Origin: an uncultured virus (IMG/VR IMGVR_UViG_3300020576_008020)
Lineage: Duplodnaviria; Heunggongvirae; Uroviricota; Caudoviricetes
Virus record (IMG/VR): IMGVR_UViG_3300020576_008020
Reading direction: 5' to 3' (one strand)
DNA length: 20,000 nucleotides
Positions 3,077 through 20,000 of the stretch are shown here, one piece after another (positions within the stretch are counted from its first letter, which is position 1; every line of letters starts with the position of its first letter). The translations under genes and the position numbers were made by a program. Below the pieces are notes generated by a model. It saw nothing but the letters and a program-made list of their open reading frames with translations. It searched no databases and was not told the DNA's origin.

Positions 3077-3093
3077 AGCAATTCTCGTGCCAA
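3077..3093 (-). promoter_or_regulatory. Sigma54 -24/-12 promoter
   Basis: Minus strand TTGGCACGAGAATTGCT = TGGCAC-N5-TTGC at the head of the leftward gene run. Confidence 0.75.
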
Positions 3094-3142
3094 AAAACCA
3101 AATTAAATATATTATAAACTGTTTGTTTTTGAAAAGAATAAT

Positions 3143-3157: not shown

Positions 3158-3549
3158 GTGCTAAGAGCCTACAAATACCGATTGAACTTAAACAATGAAC
3201 AGAAAACGTTCATAAATAAGTCATTTGGATGTGGCAGGGTAGTGTATAATTATTGTTTGCAGCGGCGCATTGAACTATATAAAGATGGTAAGCAGAAAAT
3301 AAGTGCTTTTGACCTGTGTAAGGAAATAGTGCAGCTTAAAAAGACTGAAGGCTATTATTGGTTATCTGAAGTAGACCACCAATCATTGTGCTGTTCGGTT
3401 ATGAATATGGACAACGCCTACAAGCATTTTTTTAACCGTGGTTTCGGTTTCCCAAAGTTCAAGTGTAAGTATTTCAGGCAGTCTTGCAAATTTACTCAAG
3501 GCATAAAAATAGATTTCTCGGCCAATAAAGTACGTTTTCCTAAAATAGG
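3158..3549 (+). pseudogene. tnpB: TnpB (IS200/IS605 family), 5' part, interrupted by the IS1-family element
   Basis: MLRAYKYRL...FGCGRVVYN...GFPKFK is the typical TnpB N-terminus; the frame is cut after FPKIG at the TSD. Confidence 0.92.
3542..3549 (+). repeat. Target site duplication, left copy (AAAATAGG)
   Basis: Identical to 8494-8501; abuts the left IR. Confidence 0.92.
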
Positions 3550-3590
3550 GGTAGTGCGTCCTTTTGAATGTTAATGTTTTTTAACAAAAA
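3550..3590 (+). repeat. Left terminal inverted repeat
   Basis: GGTAGTGCGTCCTTTTGAATGTTAATGTTTTTTAACAAAAA; 39/41 match to the reverse complement of 8453-8493, first 25 nt identical. Confidence 0.93.
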
Positions 3591-3620
3591 ACGGTATTGA
3601 GTTTTTGGTAACTTTGTGGT

Positions 3621-3762
3621 ATGGTAAAGAAGAACCCTCCACGTCCCAGAGATATGAACCAGCTCGCAAAGCGCATTTGTCGATATTTCCACAGGGCAAT
3701 ATACGGAGAAAGAGCCTATTACAACACCTAAGCCTACAAAAAAGAGAAAGCCCAAATCTTAG
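3621..3762 (+). pseudogene. Small basic protein of the RPRDxNQLAKxIVDIxTG type, with a +1 frameshift
   Basis: MVKKNPPRPRDMNQLAKRI; deleting one T at about 3676-3678 continues VDISTGQYTEKEPITTPKPTKKRKPKS*. TAACTTTG box at 3609-3616. Confidence 0.6.
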
Positions 3763-3847
3763 CCTTACAAGGCTTGTTTCAAGTCTGCTTTACGTATTGC
3801 ATATAAATATCCATTTACATTGCGTACCTTTATGCAAACAAATTCTC

Positions 3848-4084
3848 ATGGATAATTCAACTAAGATTCTTATTGGTCTTTTAGGCTTAGGTACAATCTA
3901 TTTGCTGTATGAAAATATGCAGTTTAAAAAATCCAATTTAAATAAGAAAGTTAGCTCTACATCCACTCAAACATCCTTTCCGCCACATCATAATGCGTAT
4001 CCTGTTCCTGTGGCTGGTCAAAAACCCGCCCCCACACCAGAAAGTGTAATGCGTAGAGCAGCAAAAAATCAGATGCCTAAATAA
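3848..4084 (+). CDS. Small membrane-anchored protein (78 aa, MDNSTKILIGLLGLG...)
   Basis: In-frame ATG within track ORF 3605..4084; N-terminal hydrophobic helix and Pro-rich tail. Confidence 0.55.
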   Translation: MDNSTKILIGLLGLGTIYLLYENMQFKKSNLNKKVSSTSTQTSFPPHHNAYPVPVAGQKPAPTPESVMRRAAKNQMPK

Positions 4085-4086
4085 TG

Positions 4087-6039
4087 TTATTTAACCACAG
4101 CAAGCCGTTCACTTTTAATTAGACTACCAGCTAATATAATGCTGACTATATAATGTCCACTCGGCAAATCCTGAGTACTAAGACTTATCCTATGTTCTCC
4201 TTCTGGTATGTTGTCATTATGCAATCGCTCACTATACTTTCCATCAACACTTCTAATTTCGATAGTACAAATACCTTCGTAGTCGGTATTAAATTCAATG
4301 GTGAAATTATTTGAGGCGGGATTAGGATATAGTTTTGTATTTACTGCCTCGTTGACATTTATGGTATTTAATGCAAAGAAGTTACCTTTTGCTATTTCGC
4401 CTATCCATGTGCCACCAGTATTATCAGCTTTTCCATAGCAGCCAGAAGCCCAAACAATTGGGGTTAATGAATTTTGTTTTCTGCATAAACCTGTATAATC
4501 CCCCCATCTTCCCATGTTGTGTGGTATTGCTTGGTAGTCCCATACAAAACTGCTGCCTGATTTTATTAATAGAGCGGGTGAGTAATTATTGCTAGCATCA
4601 GAACTATATGCGACATAGTATGGGTATGTTGTTGATAAGCTAACATTAGAACACATAATTACATTTTCATCAGCACCATTTAATCCATAAGAGGCAATAT
4701 TGGAATGACAAAAATCCCCTGATGTGGTTCCAAATAGCGACCAGCTTGATGGCGGCACAGATGCGCTCGAGGAACTCCAGATAAGCTTGGCTTTCATTGC
4801 ATAATTGGCAGAAGCCGAAGCGGAGCTAATAGAAGTAAACGTGAAATAAACACTCCATATTGATGTGGTAGGATTTCTTATAACAAACCCACCAGTTACT
4901 CTGCAATCGCCAACATCCAATTGGTTTGTACTTCCTAGTTGAAAGGCATCATAGCCTATTTCATAGTGAGGAGAAGCAACATCAATACCAGCAAAAGCAT
5001 CTGTTGGTTCATACCATGTCCAGAATTGTACAGAGTTACCAATTTGTGATTTTGTGCTGACAAAAGCCATTGTAGTTGAATATAATCCTGCTTGCCCATA
5101 ACTTAATGGATAAATAGTAAACCCCTGGTTACCTAAATCATCCAATGGATTTGACCTTTGTAAAGCTGTCCATCCAGTTGTAGAGCCACTTAATATTCCA
5201 GCCTTAGAGAATCTGAATATAATAGGATATTGAAAAGAATTACTCGAATTATACGCATTGATACTAACATAAAGAGAGCTTGCATTAATACCAATACTTG
5301 GATAATCCATCCAGATGCCCGCTGCTGGTGGTGTATATGTCCAATAACTCCATGCGCCAAGAGGATTTGACGTAAGTGGATATGCAATAATTAACTTTGA
5401 TGTTGACGGTGTTGACCCATCCAAAACAACAAGAAAAAACCTATCTAAAACGTCATCGTAAATTACTTTAGCATCGTAAAGAACACCTGAAAAACTACTG
5501 CTACCTCCCAAAAATGCGTTTATTGAATGCGAGGCCAGCGGAGTTCCAAGAGTATCTTTTATTGTAATGTTAGAGTTTGTTGTGCTGATTATTATTCCTG
5601 AATTTGATATTGCTATGCTATTATCATTCGGGAAGGTTGTGGCGTCATCTGAACTATTAAAGTGATGATTTAGATAAATCGGTGGTGCCGCGGTTGTTTT
5701 ATGCCCGTTATTGTTTTCATCTATGATAAATCCTGCTGGAGATTCCTTTTTAATTTGCAGCGTACTATCGCCACCGTCTTTTCTAAATTTTCTCTTTGAT
5801 TTTTTAAACTCCCTCAATGCCGTGTCGCCACCTTTATTAAATTCTTGCTTATTATGAATTTTAAAACGTAAATCTTTTACAGTATCAGCCTTTATGGGTC
5901 TATTATGCGGTGTTCCAGAAATTGGTGTAGCCTTTTTTACATTTTTATTATTAGGAGTATAATTTGGCGCACATCTTTGTCCAAATAAAATGAAGGTCTG
6001 TAATACTAAGACCAACAATAAAATCAATTTGCCTTTCAT
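4087..6039 (-). CDS. Secreted protein with T9SS type A C-terminal sorting domain (650 aa)
   Basis: Signal peptide MKGKLILLLVLVLQTFILFG; C-terminal KLYPNPASNNFTIEF...DGK...LPSGHYIV...KSERLAVVK; Ser/Thr/aromatic-rich core with DYPSIG and RWGDY. Confidence 0.85.
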   Translation of the reverse strand: MKGKLILLLVLVLQTFILFGQRCAPNYTPNNKNVKKATPISGTPHNRPIKADTVKDLRFKIHNKQEFNKGGDTALREFKKSKRKFRKDGGDSTLQIKKESPAGFIIDENNNGHKTTAAPPIYLNHHFNSSDDATTFPNDNSIAISNSGIIISTTNSNITIKDTLGTPLASHSINAFLGGSSSFSGVLYDAKVIYDDVLDRFFLVVLDGSTPSTSKLIIAYPLTSNPLGAWSYWTYTPPAAGIWMDYPSIGINASSLYVSINAYNSSNSFQYPIIFRFSKAGILSGSTTGWTALQRSNPLDDLGNQGFTIYPLSYGQAGLYSTTMAFVSTKSQIGNSVQFWTWYEPTDAFAGIDVASPHYEIGYDAFQLGSTNQLDVGDCRVTGGFVIRNPTTSIWSVYFTFTSISSASASANYAMKAKLIWSSSSASVPPSSWSLFGTTSGDFCHSNIASYGLNGADENVIMCSNVSLSTTYPYYVAYSSDASNNYSPALLIKSGSSFVWDYQAIPHNMGRWGDYTGLCRKQNSLTPIVWASGCYGKADNTGGTWIGEIAKGNFFALNTINVNEAVNTKLYPNPASNNFTIEFNTDYEGICTIEIRSVDGKYSERLHNDNIPEGEHRISLSTQDLPSGHYIVSIILAGSLIKSERLAVVK

Positions 6040-6073
6040 TTTGGTTTGTTTTTATGTATGAGTAAATAAAATA

Positions 6074-6202
6074 GCGTAACCGAAATTCTTCCGCTACTCA
6101 AGGCTCTGGAAGCCCCATCTCACAAAAGACACGATTACGCCATGCGGCGTACCGTAGTCATTTTGTTGCGAGATGTTCAAATTTTCCAGATTTAGAGTTA
6201 GC
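6074..6202 (-). ncRNA. Putative structured 5' leader (long imperfect hairpin) upstream of the T9SS gene
   Basis: Nested pairings 6093-6099/6195-6202, 6105-6111/6184-6190, 6116-6130/6157-6175, TACGCC 6136-6141/GGCGTA 6146-6151. Confidence 0.55.
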
Positions 6203-6366
6203 AACTAAATGTTACAATACAAACTTGTATATGTCCTGTCTTTTATCTATTCATTCATTCTATTTTCGTCAGCAATATATTTATCTTCAAGGATAAACAA
6301 CTTTAGCAAAAGTAATTATATTTACGATATGTAGTGTGTGGTAAATATAATAAATATTGGCACAGG

Positions 6367-7086
6367 ATGTCTGACGATAAGTTGCTTGACGATTATAAGA
6401 TATTGGGAGAGTACGGTGTTAAAATGACACTGTTCCATAAGTTCCAATACTACCAGAACATAATTGATACCTGTATTGATAATAATAAGCCTATTCCTGC
6501 TACTATTGCCAAGCTCTACTTTACGCTATTTCAGAACTTATGGCATGTAAAAAAGAAACGAACAAAAAAGATAACTGATGCGCTTATAAAAAGGTTTTCC
6601 AAAGAGGTCATCAGGTACTTTGAATCAGATAAAGGCAAAGGGTACAATTTTTCTGGCGAAAGGCTGGTTCACGGCAATACCTACAATGTTTTGACAAGGA
6701 CGGTCGAAGATTCTACTCACTATGAAAGCTATTCATTAGCCCAAATGATTAAAAGCTGTGTTAATAGCTACGTCTTGCTGGTGCAAGTGTTAGATTTTAA
6801 TAAGGATGAGGTAATCAGGTATCTATACGATGACATAGAGGATTACTGCGCAAAAAATCTTACAGAGCAACAGAAAGTACAATTCCCTGTTTATAAAAGG
6901 AGAGTAGTTGCCGCATATATTACCATGTGCGTAACCGAGAATTATTTTGAGGGTAAAACACGGGTCGGTAAAAAAGACGGTCAACCAGTCATTATAGAAC
7001 TCTCCACCGATTTCAGGAACGAGGATTTATTCCAGTCAACCCGGACAGCGTTAGACCCGCCAAAGCTTAAAAAAAGAAAGGCTTGA
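6367..7086 (+). CDS. Hypothetical protein (about 239 aa)
   Basis: Long ORF; ATG 6367 preferred over GTG 6334; no motif recognised. Confidence 0.75.
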   Translation: MSDDKLLDDYKILGEYGVKMTLFHKFQYYQNIIDTCIDNNKPIPATIAKLYFTLFQNLWHVKKKRTKKITDALIKRFSKEVIRYFESDKGKGYNFSGERLVHGNTYNVLTRTVEDSTHYESYSLAQMIKSCVNSYVLLVQVLDFNKDEVIRYLYDDIEDYCAKNLTEQQKVQFPVYKRRVVAAYITMCVTENYFEGKTRVGKKDGQPVIIELSTDFRNEDLFQSTRTALDPPKLKKRKA

Positions 7087-7101
7087 GTTTCCCCAAACCT
7101 A

Positions 7102-7116
7102 CTGCTTTGACACCAG
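7102..7116 (+). repeat. 15-bp direct repeat CTGCTTTGACACCAG
   Basis: Exact copy at 7328-7342, the anticodon arm of the tRNA-like gene. Confidence 0.85.
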
Positions 7117-7140
7117 TCATGTAAAAATATAAAACCTGCG

Positions 7141-7255
7141 CATTACTGCAAATTTTTTCTTTTGGCACATTACTGTGGAAATTTCATTTTTTCACAGTAG
7201 TGTGGATTTTTTCGTTTTCCGCACTACTGTGAATTCTGCCAAAAGAAACACTACC
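7141..7255. repeat. Array of CA(T/C)TACTG motifs with 27-bp periodicity, middle copy inverted
   Basis: Direct copies at 7141, 7168, 7222 and partial 7249; inverted CACAGTAGTG at 7193-7202; 7191-7206/7218-7233 form a 15/16 inverted repeat. Confidence 0.75.
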
Positions 7256-7299
7256 CATAGTTTTCATTTGCAATATACCGTGCCATACTTTCGCTATAT

Positions 7300-7372
7300 G
7301 GGAGATTGTTGGTAGTGGTCACCATGTCTGCTTTGACACCAGACGAGATGGGTTCAATTCCCTTATCTTCCA
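7300..7372 (+). tRNA. Atypical tRNA-like gene (anticodon ambiguous; 9-nt loop CTTTGACAC)
   Basis: Acceptor GGGAGAT/ATCTTCC plus A; D arm TGGT-AGTGGTC-ACCA; anticodon stem GTCTG/CAGAC; T arm GGG-TTCAATT-CCC. Confidence 0.6.
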
Positions 7373-7424
7373 TCATTTTATTTCTCTAAAAAAATCTTTG
7401 TAAACACCAGTAAAATCAACACTT

Positions 7425-7440
7425 TGGCATCTTATTTGCA
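7425..7440 (+). promoter_or_regulatory. Sigma54-type promoter upstream of the IS1 transposase
   Basis: TGGCATCTTATTTGCA (GG-N10-GC), about 67 nt before ATG 7507. Confidence 0.55.
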
Positions 7441-7506
7441 CTATGCTATACAGCATACGGATAATAGAGAGGAAGGGAATAATAGCACAGAAAAAGGACT
7501 CACAAA

Positions 7507-8403
7507 ATGAACAGGCTCAGTATAGAAGAAAGAGCAAAAATAATTAGGATATTAGTAGAAGGAACAAGCCTTAGAGCTTGCACCCGTATTTCCGGGCTAT
7601 CCTACAACGCAGTGAAAAAACTGCTGATTGATGTTGGTAAAGCCTGCCAGCAATTCCACAACGATAATGTAGTGAATGTTGCCGCTAAGAAAGTACAATG
7701 TGACGAGATTTGGAGCTACGTTTACTGTAAAGACCGCAATGTGGACTTTTGCACAAAGAAAGACGAACAGCACGTAGGGGATGCGTGGACATGGGTAGGA
7801 ATAGACGCTGATACCAAGCTGGTAATTTCATGGCTGGTAGGTAACAGGGATGCAGATTGCGCACATGAATTCATGCTCGATGTAGCAAGTAGGCTTAGGA
7901 GCAGGGTACAACTATCCACCGATGGCTTTAAGCCTTATTTGCGGGCGGTAGAAAACGCCTTTGAAGATGAGATTGACTACGCCATGCTCATTAAGACGTA
8001 TGGGCAGCCAGAGGGTGGCAGCAACGAAAGAAGGTATAGCCCTGCCGTTTGTACAGGAATAACAAAAAGGTGGGTGTCTGGCGACCCTGTTGAAGAAGAT
8101 ATATCCACCAGCTATATAGAACGTCAGAACCTCACTATGCGTATGCATATGCGCAGGTTCACAAGGTTAACCAACGCATTTTCCAAGAAAATAGAGAACC
8201 ATTGCCATGCTATTGCCATCCACTATGTCTATTACAACTTCATCAGGAGGCATAATACACTAAAAGTTACCCCCGCAATGGCAGCAGGGCTAACTTCCAG
8301 ACCAATGACCATAGAGGACATGGTTCGCATGGCTTACGCTGATGAAATAGCAAAAGAAGAAAAGATTAAAGCCCGATACAAACGTCCAGCCCCGGCAGTC
8401 TAA
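7507..8403 (+). CDS. IS1-family DDE transposase (298 aa, single ORF)
   Basis: N-terminal HTH (EGTSLRACTRISGLSYNAV); catalytic motifs QCDEIWSYV, STDGFKPY, TSYIERQNLTMR, followed by RRFTRLTNAFSKK and TPAMAAG. Confidence 0.92.
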   Translation: MNRLSIEERAKIIRILVEGTSLRACTRISGLSYNAVKKLLIDVGKACQQFHNDNVVNVAAKKVQCDEIWSYVYCKDRNVDFCTKKDEQHVGDAWTWVGIDADTKLVISWLVGNRDADCAHEFMLDVASRLRSRVQLSTDGFKPYLRAVENAFEDEIDYAMLIKTYGQPEGGSNERRYSPAVCTGITKRWVSGDPVEEDISTSYIERQNLTMRMHMRRFTRLTNAFSKKIENHCHAIAIHYVYYNFIRRHNTLKVTPAMAAGLTSRPMTIEDMVRMAYADEIAKEEKIKARYKRPAPAV

Positions 8404-8408
8404 GACAC

Positions 8409-8438
8409 AAAACCCGCAGTTGATAGCTGCGGGTTTTT
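8409..8438 (+). terminator. Intrinsic terminator (probably bidirectional)
   Basis: AAAACCCGCAG / CTGCGGGTTTTT just after the transposase stop. Confidence 0.8.
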
Positions 8439-8452
8439 CTCTAACTTTATGC

Positions 8453-8493
8453 TTTTTGTTAAAATACGTTAACATTCAAAAGGACGCACTACC
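8453..8493 (-). repeat. Right terminal inverted repeat
   Basis: Ends ...TTAACATTCAAAAGGACGCACTACC; reverse complement of 3550-3590 with 2 mismatches. Confidence 0.93.
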
Positions 8494-8501
8494 AAAATAG
8501 G
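8494..8501 (+). repeat. Target site duplication, right copy (AAAATAGG)
   Basis: Identical to 3542-3549. Confidence 0.92.
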
Positions 8502-9342
8502 TTGGGTGCGAGCTTATATTGACCGGGAGTTTACAGGAACGATAAAAACCACTACAGTAACAAAAAATGCCAGCGGAAAATACTATGTAAGCATTTTAGT
8601 CGAAAACGGCATGGAGCTACCTGCAAAGCCAGCAGTTCACCCACAAACAACGATTGGCATAGACGTAGGGGTAAAGAATATTGTAACTTTTAGCGACGGT
8701 ACCACCATTGCCAACCCGAGAAACTTCTTTAAGTACGAAGAGCGGCTGGCATTACTACAGCAACGACTTTCTCGCCGGGACAAAAACCGTTATCCGGATG
8801 AAAAAGATAAAAGCAGTAGGCGCCGGCGCAAAGCGCAAATGGCCGTTGCCAAAATGCACCAGAAAATACAAAATACCCGGAGTAATTTACTGCAAAAAAT
8901 TACCTCAAAAATTATTAGCGAGAACCAAACTATAATCATTGAGGATTTGAATATAAAAGGCATGACGGCTACCTGTAAACCAAAACCTAACGAAGACAAC
9001 ACAGGCTTTCTTCCAAATGGGCAAGCCGCTAAAAGCGGCCTGAACAAATCTATTTTGGATGTGGGTTTGGGTAAGTTCTTTGATATGTTGGAATATAAAG
9101 CTGAGTGGCACGGAAAAAACCTCATTAAAATAGGCAGATTTGAGCCATCAAGCAAGCTTTGTAGTAATTGCAAGCACAAAAACGCAGACCTGAAGTTAAA
9201 AGACCGGGTCTGGACTTGTGTTAACTGCGGGACAGAGCATGACAGGGATGTAAATGCCGCGGTCAACATTAAGGAAATTGGATTGAAACAATATTATTTA
9301 CAAACAAAGTCAGGGCAGGGCATGCCCGTTGCGGACGTATGA
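8502..9342 (+). pseudogene. tnpB: TnpB 3' part (RuvC and zinc finger)
   Basis: IGIDVG, IIIEDL, CSNC...CVNC, HDRDVNAAVNI; joins the 5' part in frame as FPKIG|WVRAYIDREF. Confidence 0.92.
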
Positions 9343-12754: not shown

Positions 12755-13030
12755 ATGCATTTTTTTGATGAAAGGCTGGGGAAAATTAAAAAAGGTGATT
12801 GGCTGAAGGGAGCAGATGGACAGTCTGGCTTGGTCTATTCGTATGATAATATTGAATATAGAATTGTTTTCCATAACAAGCATAATTACCCCATAAGTAC
12901 TTATGAGCTTGCCAATTGGCTAAAAAACAATTCCAATGCCGAAAAGTGCAAAGCTGCATTTAATTATGAGCCTAGTGCTGGTGCGAGTAGTTTACTTTCA
13001 AGGTTCAAAGTAAACTTAGGGATTTCATAG
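12755..13030 (+). CDS. Hypothetical protein (91 aa)
   Basis: ORF in co-directional run. Confidence 0.65.
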   Translation: MHFFDERLGKIKKGDWLKGADGQSGLVYSYDNIEYRIVFHNKHNYPISTYELANWLKNNSNAEKCKAAFNYEPSAGASSLLSRFKVNLGIS

Positions 13031-19174: not shown

Positions 19175-20000
19175 GGTAATGACATATTTTAGTGTACCGC
19201 CAAATATTTTAATAAATATTTATTGAATTACTTGCACGTACCGAAAATAGGTATTATATTTGTGTTGAACAATTAAAGACTAATAGAATGGAAAAAGCTA
19301 AAAAGACCGTACAGTTCAATTCATTTCCCGCAATGATTAACGCATTGCCTGACGACAAATCTTGTCGTGAATACTTAGAGCAAAAAATATGGAAAGGTGG
19401 CAATCCAGTATGTCCCTACTGTGGTGGTCATAAACATTACAGGCTCACAGAGCATGGAGAATTTAAGGGGCAATACAAGTGCGCTGATTGCAAAAAGCGT
19501 TATAACGTAATGGTGGGTACAATGTTTGAAGGTACACACATCGGATTGCGCAAATGGTTTATTGCTATCTACATCTTTTCATTGCATAAAAAGGGTGTTA
19601 GTTCACATCAATTAGCAAGTGATTTGGACATAACCCAAAAGAGTGCTTGGTTCTTATTGAGCCGCATACGCCACGCATTTGCACCAGACCAACCAACCGA
19701 AGCAATAGATGGTTTGTTTCATGCCGATGAAACGTTCGTGGGCGGGAAAAATCGCAACAGGCATGAAGATAAAAAGGTAGAGCAATCACAGGGTCGTAGC
19801 TATAAGGATAAAACACCTGTATTCGGACTGATGCAGGAGGGAGGCAAGGTAAGCACCCACGTTGTACCAAATACAAAAGCCATAACTTTGAAGCCGATTA
19901 TTGAGGGTATGGTAAAGAAGGGGTCTATCATTGTAACAGACGAATGGCTTGCCTATAAAGGCTTGGCAAAGAATTATAACCACGTTGTTATAAATCATCT
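19175..20000 (+). mobile_element. IS1595-family element, left part (truncated by the window)
   Basis: Candidate left end GGTAATGACATATTTTAGTGTACC just after the helicase stop; TATATTTG box at 19255-19262; transposase from 19288. Right end not visible, so the boundary is tentative. Confidence 0.65.
19288..20000 (+). CDS. IS1595-family transposase (partial, runs off window; not in ORF track)
   Basis: MEKAKKTVQF...CPYCG...YKCADCKKRY...KKGVSSHQLASDLDITQKSAWF...HADETFVGG...IVTDEWLAY: zinc ribbon, HTH and DDE motifs. Confidence 0.92.
   Translation, partial: MEKAKKTVQFNSFPAMINALPDDKSCREYLEQKIWKGGNPVCPYCGGHKHYRLTEHGEFKGQYKCADCKKRYNVMVGTMFEGTHIGLRKWFIAIYIFSLHKKGVSSHQLASDLDITQKSAWFLLSRIRHAFAPDQPTEAIDGLFHADETFVGGKNRNRHEDKKVEQSQGRSYKDKTPVFGLMQEGGKVSTHVVPNTKAITLKPIIEGMVKKGSIIVTDEWLAYKGLAKNYNHVVINH

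Follow-up and report, generated by a model that had tools for sequence, protein, structure and literature searches.

A conserved, apparently undescribed cassette of a tRNA-like gene and a predicted anticodon-loop antisense RNA in Bacteroidota transposons

The DNA analysed here is a stretch of 20,000 nt, referred to as the window (a name also used for its own locus when family members are counted), in which a cargo-bearing transposon of the IS1 family interrupts a tnpB-like gene and carries a tRNA-like gene ahead of its transposase. The following features were assigned:

3158..9342, plus strand: tnpB-like gene, interrupted by the element; left part PF12323, right part PF01385 and PF07282
3542..3549, plus strand, and 8494-8501: left and right copies of the 8-bp target duplication
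3550..8493, plus strand: whole IS1-family cargo transposon, 4,944 bp, with 41-nt inverted repeats at 3550-3590 and 8453-8493
4087..6039, minus strand: passenger gene for a 650-aa protein that ends in a C-terminal domain of type IX secretion (PF18962)
6334..7086, plus strand: orf250, a member of an unnamed protein family that marks the module; likely start at Met12 (6367)
7069..7100, minus strand: intrinsic terminator that overlaps the end of orf250; an independent scan places its 9-bp stem, GAAA loop and U run at 7100-7079
7069..7117, minus strand: predicted 49-nt antisense RNA, a 5' tail complementary to tRNA bases 29-43 followed by the terminator hairpin
7102..7116, plus strand: segment that repeats 15 nt of the anticodon arm (7328-7342) exactly and in direct orientation, from which the antisense tail would be transcribed; 0.04 expected by chance
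7122..7129, minus strand: -7 promoter box that fits the Bacteroidota pattern TAnnTTTG at all but one position and is directed towards the copy, with the +1 predicted at 7117
7139..7231: four imperfect palindromes with a 27-bp period (7139, 7166, 7193 and 7220), between two predicted divergent promoters
7263..7293, plus strand: candidate -7 boxes of the tRNA at 7263-7270 and 7286-7293, one mismatch each
7300..7372, plus strand: tRNA-like gene with G1-C72, G2-C71, G3:U70 and A73, a 9-nt open anticodon loop and no encoded CCA
7425..7439, plus strand: sigma54-like -24/-12 site in the gap between tRNA and transposase (pattern match)
7507..8403, plus strand: IS1-family transposase, single ORF, 298 aa (PF03400, 34.9 bits versus a cut-off of 24.1)

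The element and its tRNA-like gene

The element combines a PF03400 transposase, terminal inverted repeats and a short target duplication, as expected of the IS1 family, and a Bacteroidota host is indicated by the type IX tail domain together with the closest named relatives of the transposase. As had been predicted, the tRNA-like gene lies within the element, which is bounded by the inverted repeats and target duplication, and 134 nt separate it from the transposase ATG at 7507. A related record (X3 record 3, corresponding to window 5129-8498) holds near-identical orf250, tRNA and transposase genes (24 differences over 5977-8498), next to which the passenger gene is represented by a diverged piece; the cargo varies and the cassette stays. 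Directly after the transposase stop, a GC-rich hairpin between A and T runs (8402-8445, with weak Rfam leader matches) is likely a two-way terminator. Elsewhere in the window, copies of a 20-nt intergenic repeat family are located at 250-269, 1495-1514, 3079-3098 and 12928-12947, two of which read as sigma54 -24/-12 sites on the minus strand, and an IS1595 transposase gene at 19288-19998 (plus strand) runs past the window end, with no tRNA-like match before it.

The original prediction of a tRNA-like cloverleaf at 7300-7372 was borne out in coordinates and features. Rfam model RF00005 matched this segment over its full length on the plus strand (32.0 bits versus a gathering threshold of 29, E 0.0029), a covariance model built from 27 ordinary tRNAs gave 33.8 bits (E 1.3e-7), and ARAGORN with relaxed settings scored it 97.2 and called it Ser(tga), while making no call for the gene at default settings. 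The 7-bp acceptor stem, the open 9-nt anticodon loop CTTTGACAC and the T-stem mismatch, which is U.U, are all present as described. The odd linker lengths also reported for this RNA disappear under standard numbering, by which it is of normal length and has U.U at the first D-stem pair and C.C at 31.39. The anticodon arm has a stem of 4-5 bp below the open loop, and differs from the canonical arm (5-bp stem, 7-nt loop, U33 and purine 37) by the C.C at 31.39 and by C37 in the 7-nt register. The CCA tail must be added, because the terminal CCA of the gene is C71-C72-A73. Energy folding of 7300-7372 alone gave no cloverleaf (z -0.8), with pair probabilities of at least 0.94 in the acceptor stem and at most 0.18 in all other stems; support for the cloverleaf lies in covariation among relatives and not in folding energy, and the copy in the window, with mismatches in its D and T arms and no fold by energy, may be a weak one.

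Alanine identity is specified by G3:U70 together with G1-C72, G2-C71 and A73. This complete set is present in the window gene and in 10 of its 12 relatives; the NGC anticodon of tRNA-Ala is absent from the window loop, which reads UGA, UGAC or GAC. The gene is no tmRNA, being 73 nt long with D and anticodon arms and receiving no tmRNA call from ARAGORN or Rfam, and the 8/4 or 9/3 acceptor/T branch of allo-tRNAs is replaced by a 7/5 branch in 13 of 13 aligned genes.

The orf250 cassette family and its predicted antisense RNA

The family of the tRNA-like gene could be reached only via orf250 and not via DNA patterns of the tRNA itself. The 15-mer of the anticodon arm occurred in at least 118 stretches of viral contigs, none of them tRNA-like among the matches listed, and a D-arm pattern gave no match. 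A loop plus T-arm pattern returned seven candidates, all of which were ordinary phage tRNA-Gln genes, and one metagenome scan returned a single chance match within a coding gene. The search of 401 Bacteroidota genomes yielded only one weak partial match and that of phage records only one short match.

A profile of 19 orf250 members was run on 197 IS1 loci and on samples of genomes. Among the IS1 loci it matched only the window and L329, both of which have an Ala-acceptor tRNA approximately 215 nt past the orf250 stop; in the genome samples, which overlap, it matched 10/391, 5/35, 3/87, 1/5, 1/91 and 4/18. This resulted in 17 distinct orf250 loci, including the window and L329 and leaving out L357 and L366 as second pieces of counted genes. 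A tRNA-like gene is present in 13 of the 17, at 171-254 nt past the stop; in three loci with full flanks (L352, L355 and L362) no such gene follows the orf250 homolog, and the contig of L353 stops 54 nt past the orf250 stop. The module is ordered as orf250, terminator, anticodon-arm copy, minus-strand -7 box, phased palindromes, tRNA-like gene and transposase. The gene that follows is an IS1595 transposase in nine loci and an IS1 transposase in two; L347 has an IS1595-like ORF broken off by the contig end, and in L361 an IS1380-type gene follows 458 nt on, with no IS1595 gene adjacent. In one locus, IS1595 ends and an 8-bp duplication surround the cassette. In the IS1595 versions the tRNA ends approximately 3-35 nt ahead of the transposase ATG, whereas the transposase of L329 lies 228 nt past the tRNA. 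The IS1595 transposase of L370 is in two frames, with the break near the first third. Since the cassette is found before IS1595 (9), IS1 (2) and IS1380-type (1) genes, it is not tied to one transposase, and the tRNA-like RNA travels with orf250 and not with the IS1 transposase.

The notion of a decayed tRNA, one of the options of the original prediction, is contradicted by the conservation of the family. The 13 tRNA-like genes have a median identity of 51%, and in their alignment, made on plain sequence, 87.9% of 256 cells are paired, 64 cells being altered on both sides. Acceptor and T stems are 99% paired and the D stem 57%, the latter being partly misaligned and partly degenerate. Both-side changes affect 13 of 20 pairs, so that the stems are compensated; none of 500 shuffles equalled the covariation score, a comparison in which kinship can beat such shuffles, although the per-pair table displays the changes directly, and slid controls were 48-65% paired. 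Pair 3:70 is G:U in 11 of the 13 genes and G-C in two, while pairs 4-7 occur in three or four forms each; G3:U70 with A73 is kept in 11/13, and G3:U70 was found in only one of 27 ordinary tRNAs.

A search of 1.84 billion representatives at E 0.001 gave 21 relatives of the orf250 protein, and no name for it. Its 19 members gave no Pfam match above cut-off, no match was obtained among atlas features, and phage and plasmid records yielded no match for a homolog. The structure model is confident (mean pLDDT 89), and Foldseek returned nothing at E 0.001 from the PDB or viral libraries; the best VIA Z was 5.8 for the whole model, and the C-terminal half reached Z 5.6 with the ColE2 Rep DNA-binding domain (rmsd 4.3, 73 aligned). 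These matches are too weak to name a fold, and they are no proof of a new one. The palindromes are candidate operators, and in several relatives they lie at approximately -130, -104 and -78 relative to the tRNA. Because palindromes follow orf250, also in L355, the protein is proposed, from position only, as a DNA-binding regulator. In L355 and L362 the orf250 homolog is followed by a small helix-turn-helix ORF, excisionase-like by reading of its sequence, in place of the tRNA, which suggests that orf250 also serves integrative elements.

The 15-nt copy of the anticodon arm upstream of the tRNA is longer than any match obtained by shuffling (0/2000 shuffles reached 12 nt), and the antisense tail that it would encode covers the 5' anticodon stem, the loop and part of the 3' stem. 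Per locus, the longest exact match between the tRNA and its own spacer was 7, 10, 11, 13, 13, 14, 14, 14, 15, 15, 15, 16 and 17 nt; when 156 mismatched cross-locus pairs were compared, it never exceeded 10 nt (median 7). The copy is thus present in 12 of 13 loci (10-17 nt), always direct and always comprising the 5' stem strand and loop, and it changes with its own tRNA even in the three closest relatives (L348, L363 and L364). The exception is L329, the sole member with a plain 7-nt loop, in which the longest match is 7 nt and both copy and box are missing. A minus-strand TAnnTTTG box accompanies the copy in 12/13 loci, nine perfect and three with one mismatch (including the window), where the pattern was set after viewing the sequences and approximately 10% of 21-nt spacer stretches hold such a box; on the tRNA side, similar -7 boxes lie 21-28 nt ahead of the gene in 11 of the 12 other loci. 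The -7 box of Bacteroidota is positioned at -12 to -5 according to the available part of PMC9723704. The predicted minus-strand +1 falls opposite the same tRNA base in 8/12 loci and opposite the next base in one; in the other three (window, L348 and L365) the box is displaced outward by 5-6 nt, and the match reaches further in that direction. Complementarity begins at +1, +2 or +3 in all 12, and a hairpin with U run follows 55-83 nt on in each of them (weak in L354), as detected by a script without control. In the window, antisense and tRNA co-fold at -48.9 kcal/mol versus -15.8 and -20.9 apart, and the first 24 nt of the predicted RNAs pair best with their own tRNA in 12 of 12 loci, narrowly so in L361. 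Mismatches between copy and tRNA, scored for G:U tolerance, stand at 1 against 1. A copy that follows its own tRNA and starts at the predicted +1 points to an antisense RNA of 50-85 nt directed against the anticodon loop, and such an RNA very probably exists. A sense-strand leader competing for the 3' stem was considered and rejected, because the loop bases would then not need to match.

tRNA-like genes are also encountered in IS1 elements that lack orf250. IS1 transposase loci were collected from viral contigs, a genome collection, one Bacteroidota order (12/401 genomes) and one family (20/401), and 197 of them, including the window, were searched with the 27-tRNA model after leaving out L006, L220 and L322, known to represent the same place, and swapping 20 short loci for longer cuts. 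After dropping six near-duplicates, matching ends were found in 133/191 and an 8-bp duplication in 115/191. Within 350 nt ahead of the transposase on the same strand, 18 matches of at least 20 bits occurred in 16 of the 180 loci with a full start and 350 nt upstream, versus 0.44 expected from 29 matches elsewhere; by set, 2/80, 5/73 and 8/26 loci bear such a gene. By our own reading, most of their bodies mismatch the anticodon: UUA stands on Ser- or Leu-type bodies, AGG, AGU or GUA on His-type and ACU or GCU on Arg-type ones, while the Ala acceptors among them have a widened loop. None of 21 tRNA-like genes in 17 IS1 elements without orf250, several of which combine G3:U70 with widened loops (L227, L229, L331 and L333), has a copy longer than 10 nt in the 300 nt upstream, and such RNAs can therefore exist without an antisense partner; they may be held down by other regulators, or be harmless.

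Several loci deserve separate mention. Within IS1-family elements, well-formed UUA-anticodon (ochre suppressor) tRNAs with Ser-, Leu- or Ala-type bodies are found at L134:2742-2830(-), L005:5799-5911(-), L243:5776-5859(+) and L328:6438-6511(+), L243 being a 1.3-kb element with little besides this tRNA. Ala-acceptor RNAs, single or in tandem, whose loops are widened or whose D stem is unclear, and which have neither orf250 nor copy, precede the IS1 transposases of L227 (5627-5880), L229 (5726-5892), L331, L333 (7311-7387, minus strand), L342 and L311; L331 has two tRNA-like genes ahead of its transposase, and L227 has an additional gene of Gly type, in which the loop measures 8 nt. At the same position, L167:6783-6856, L278:5820-5894, L327 and L330 have Pro, Thr or Tyr anticodons on His-type bodies (G-1, C73), which resemble the G-1 tRNAs of Mukai et al. 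Low-scoring tRNA-shaped RNAs lie in phage tRNA arrays (L358:2499-2571(-) and L359:2499-2571(-)); a minihelix-like RNA of acceptor and T arm only is found at L360:2499-2545(-). A conserved basic protein of 75-100 aa with a GGLKGG motif is encoded inside the left end of L229, L328, L329, L331, L136, L290, L278 and L167, and downstream of the transposase L167 and L175 carry what we read as an antitoxin-toxin-like pair (DUF4065-like plus a small partner).

Loop reading, proposed mechanism and alternatives

With loop limits set by hand in 12 loci, the loop measures 9 nt in nine and 8 nt in three (L351, L356 and L365); in two of the nine (L348 and L354) a U-A pair could reduce it to 7 nt. When positions are counted from the 3' stem, all 12 have A at 37 preceded by U at a distance of five bases; the four bases between them are UGAC or CGAC in nine loci, with variation only at the wobble-side base, and CCGC, UCGG and AAUC in the rest. 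Under these hand-set limits, U33, a four-base anticodon and purine 37, as in quadruplet tRNAs, are present in all 12, while the window, with 9 nt, deviates from the 8-nt loop on a full stem that such tRNAs have. A triplet read from the 3' side has U33 in only 7/12, reading the triplet from the 5' side gives serine anticodons (UGA or CGA) with position 37 occupied by C in the nine UGAC or CGAC loci, and the window loop reads equally as UGA with C37; an Ala-type loop occurs only in L365. Because only the four-base register keeps both usual flanks throughout, +1 frameshifting at GUCA or GUCG is favoured as the decoding outcome, with alanine at serine codons as the second choice; either would be harmful in bulk. 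Mutants of the sufD/sufA type are known +1 frameshift suppressors. Expression of a four-base tRNA on an alanine scaffold can halt growth of E. coli (PMC9094753), and missense allo-tRNAs killed E. coli, while some irregular tRNAs are charged yet unused in translation (PMC5389517); these and the other papers cited by PMC number are referred to for the parts of their text that were accessible.

Private recoding of the transposase by its own tRNA was considered for 16 tRNA-bearing elements in an alignment of 181 transposases. Only L136 has the codon that its tRNA would read at a conserved column of the amino acid with which that tRNA would be charged (Arg131 as AGT), which is possibly due to chance; this locus encodes an Arg-type tRNA with ACU anticodon (6816-6890), and its transposase codon 131 is AGT (Ser) at a 91%-Arg column, one case in 16. 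For the window's element this candidate was rejected, because its transposase is intact and contains no GTC+A and a single TCA, and the codon test revealed no dependence of any gene in the element on the tRNA.

The reading that we prefer, at a likelihood that approaches but does not reach an even chance, is that of a miscoding tRNA toxin with an antisense antitoxin, forming an RNA-only cassette on Bacteroidota transposons. Two divergent promoters would produce a pre-tRNA and an antisense RNA of 50-85 nt, and the latter would open the arm by pairing, through its first 11-16 bases, with the loop and the 5' strand of the anticodon stem; these two steps are strongly indicated. With moderate confidence, the tRNA would be trimmed, receive CCA and be charged with alanine, because G3:U70 is what AlaRS recognises; that the enzyme does not read the anticodon is stated in PMC9094753. 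Less firmly, an unchecked tRNA would miscode, either by reading four bases (GUCA here) with a +1 shift of the ribosome or by inserting alanine at UCA serine codons. Upon loss or silencing of the element, the short antisense RNA would vanish first and the stable tRNA would poison the cell, which would stabilise the element or abort phage infection, and orf250, judged by its position, may bind the palindromes and control the relative activity of the two promoters. The more specific version, a natural and conserved four-base alanyl-tRNA that poisons by +1 frameshifting at GUC-purine-like sites and is held by an anti-anticodon RNA and a protein regulator, is conceivable and on balance unlikely. 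Confidence in the toxin-antitoxin reading is kept below even because genes without orf250 have no copy, the IS1595 transposases abut the tRNA, the G:U test is even, charged but unused tRNAs exist, and the D and T arms of the window's copy are weak.

Among the functions that had been suggested for this RNA beforehand, frameshift suppressor and transposase regulator have both been retained, as first and second reading, respectively. The latter, antisense control of transposition, is unlikely but has to be taken seriously: the tRNA-like fold would be a 5' leader or processing mark of the transposase message and its loop a pairing site rather than an anticodon, and the antisense RNA, by kissing the loop, would alter processing or trigger double-strand cleavage and thereby limit transposase as copies rise, in the manner of IS10 RNA-OUT. 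The distance of 75-108 nt from tRNA start to transposase ATG in 10 IS1595-type loci, which leaves no room for a separate promoter, suits this explanation, as do the crowding of the IS1 tRNA-like genes within 350 nt before the transposase (16/180 loci) and the U-turn (YUNR-like) motif with which most loops open. Loops targeted by antisense RNAs begin with such a motif. A leader, however, has no need of G3:U70 and A73, both of which 11/13 genes keep while neighbouring pairs change, and its loop could drift with its antisense, yet YGAC-A is found in 9/12 at approximately 50% tRNA identity; moreover, the transposase lies 134 nt further on in the window, with a sigma54-like site of its own, and 228 nt in L329, and L361 has no adjacent IS1595 gene. 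A charged, non-decoding mimic acting in trans, as a nuclease decoy, a sponge for EF-Tu or AlaRS or an alanine donor that is silenced by the antisense RNA until needed, is improbable, the anticodon-nuclease decoy of the original prediction being one possible role. It would account for conserved alanine identity and T arm alongside a loop length of 7 to 9 nt, for the Ala-acceptor RNAs without clear D stem in L227 and L229, and for pyrimidine 37 and the open 31.39 pair in the window RNA, features unfavourable to ordinary decoding. Codon reading, in contrast, agrees with the U-NNNN-A spacing and with variation of the wobble type, and neither a family scan of the window's element nor inspection by eye of the ORF lists of relatives revealed a nuclease or transferase gene. 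Irregular tRNAs that are charged and unused, as on record in PMC5389517, fit the mimic.

The anatomy of copy, box and terminator is easy to explain as a divergent antisense RNA and hard to explain as DNA repeats. Direct repeats, att-like or homologous, would serve one-way deletion of the 226-bp promoter segment plus the 5' half of the tRNA, or be scars; the copies are indeed direct and nearly always exact, the G:U test does not favour RNA pairing, and tyrosine integrases are known to use anticodon loops as crossover sites. This explanation is nevertheless very improbable: the match starts at the predicted +1, shifts with the box and is followed by a terminator, neither of which repeats need, it stops short of both tRNA ends, unlike att sites, orf250 matches no recombinase family, and the deleted form was seen in 0/17 loci. 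Contigs of four runs, probably derived from DNA and uninformative on strand or ends, gave no junction across 7116-7343, a result without weight in either direction. That the gene is a captured host or phage tRNA-Gln(UUG) in decay, with the upstream copy as a chance duplication, is hardly credible. Phage tRNA-Gln genes share the loop and 3' strand, at a 2-nt slip from the window's arm, and the score of 32 bits is low with mismatches in two stems; against this stand the family-wide covariation, G3:U70, the matched copies in 12/13 loci and a contig of approximately 92% identity that spans 7275-7634 without a gap (X9 record 28).

Comparison with known systems

The analysis points to a real, conserved and apparently undescribed cassette that moves with IS1595 and IS1 elements of Bacteroidota. 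No tRNA-like RNA with an antisense partner was found among the open-access papers searched for insertion sequences or toxin-antitoxin systems, nor was anything found there on ISMhu11 with passenger genes. The element resembles IS1-family members with passengers in its PF03400 transposase, GGTAGTG ends and 8-bp duplication, and differs from other IS1 elements in its single ORF, its size of 4.9 kb and a tRNA cassette that is otherwise located in IS1595 elements. In the IS10 RNA-OUT and IS200 art200 systems, as predicted here, the transposase end of the insertion sequence has a divergent promoter for a short antisense RNA, but these RNAs overlap and pair with the translation start region. The present antisense RNA would instead target an anticodon loop and be encoded by a separate copy at a distance of 150-230 nt, in a cassette that moves between IS families.

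Type VIII toxin-antitoxin systems have RNA toxins, and the validated kinds in TADB 3.0 are CreTA and SdsR-RyeA, as far as the accessible text goes (PMC10767807, PMC11951105). The cassette would agree with them (see also PMC8501985) in its two predicted small RNAs on opposite strands within 200 bp, one of which is a predicted neutraliser, and in the addiction role on a mobile element proposed here; neighbouring complementary RNA genes, with complement, box and terminator, are predicted in 12/13 loci. Unlike the type VIII systems described in those parts, the proposed toxin is the tRNA itself, and a protein and phased palindromes are built in. The genes of SdsR and RyeA overlap, whereas the two RNA genes of the window do not, and unlike CreTA, in which CreA guides Cascade and CreT sequesters tRNAs, no CRISPR repeat or Cas partner is apparent: there was no CRISPR family among the Rfam matches in the window and no cas gene among 15 proteins scanned in these 20 kb, the split tnpB aside.

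The mismatch between anticodon and identity and the link to mobile DNA are shared with the allo-tRNAs and irregular tRNA polycistrons of Mukai et al. (PMC5389517), which lie close to toxin-antitoxin and transposon genes and some of which cause missense or nonsense suppression and toxicity in E. coli. The window RNA differs from the allo-tRNAs (8/4 or 9/3) in its 7/5 branch and short variable loop, and its host group is Bacteroidota instead of Acidobacteria; a cognate antisense RNA is not mentioned in the available part of that paper, of which supplementary figures S5-S7 present further irregular tRNA loci that could bear on novelty. With quadruplet or +1 suppressor tRNAs (PMC9094753) the RNA has U33, four bases and purine 37 in common. 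Alanine scaffolds among such tRNAs are charged whatever the loop and can be toxic, and natural quadruplet tRNAs are expected to be rare according to the accessible text of the same paper; the available part of a review of non-canonical tRNAs (PMC7609411) does not mention 'frameshift' or 'quadruplet'. Unlike those quadruplet tRNAs, which are mutants or designs with 8-nt loops, the present family has 8 nt in 3/12 and 9 nt or a weakly closed 7 in 9/12, and its gene is conserved with a regulatory partner.

Irrespective of the mechanism, a tRNA gene together with a predicted RNA antisense to its own anticodon loop, the two co-evolving per locus, is an arrangement not found among the open-access papers searched. 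If the tRNA miscodes, it would be both a tRNA acting as toxin and a natural family of four-base-anticodon tRNAs, and if the four-base reading is true, a toxin-antitoxin system would have a tRNA as its toxin and quadruplet tRNAs would be kept by selection. Its parts are tiny (73 and 49 nt), and a miscoding tRNA that can be switched by antisense would serve synthetic biology. Finally, the 'irregular tRNAs near transposons' of Mukai et al., for which there is no explanation, become accessible to testing through the cassette.
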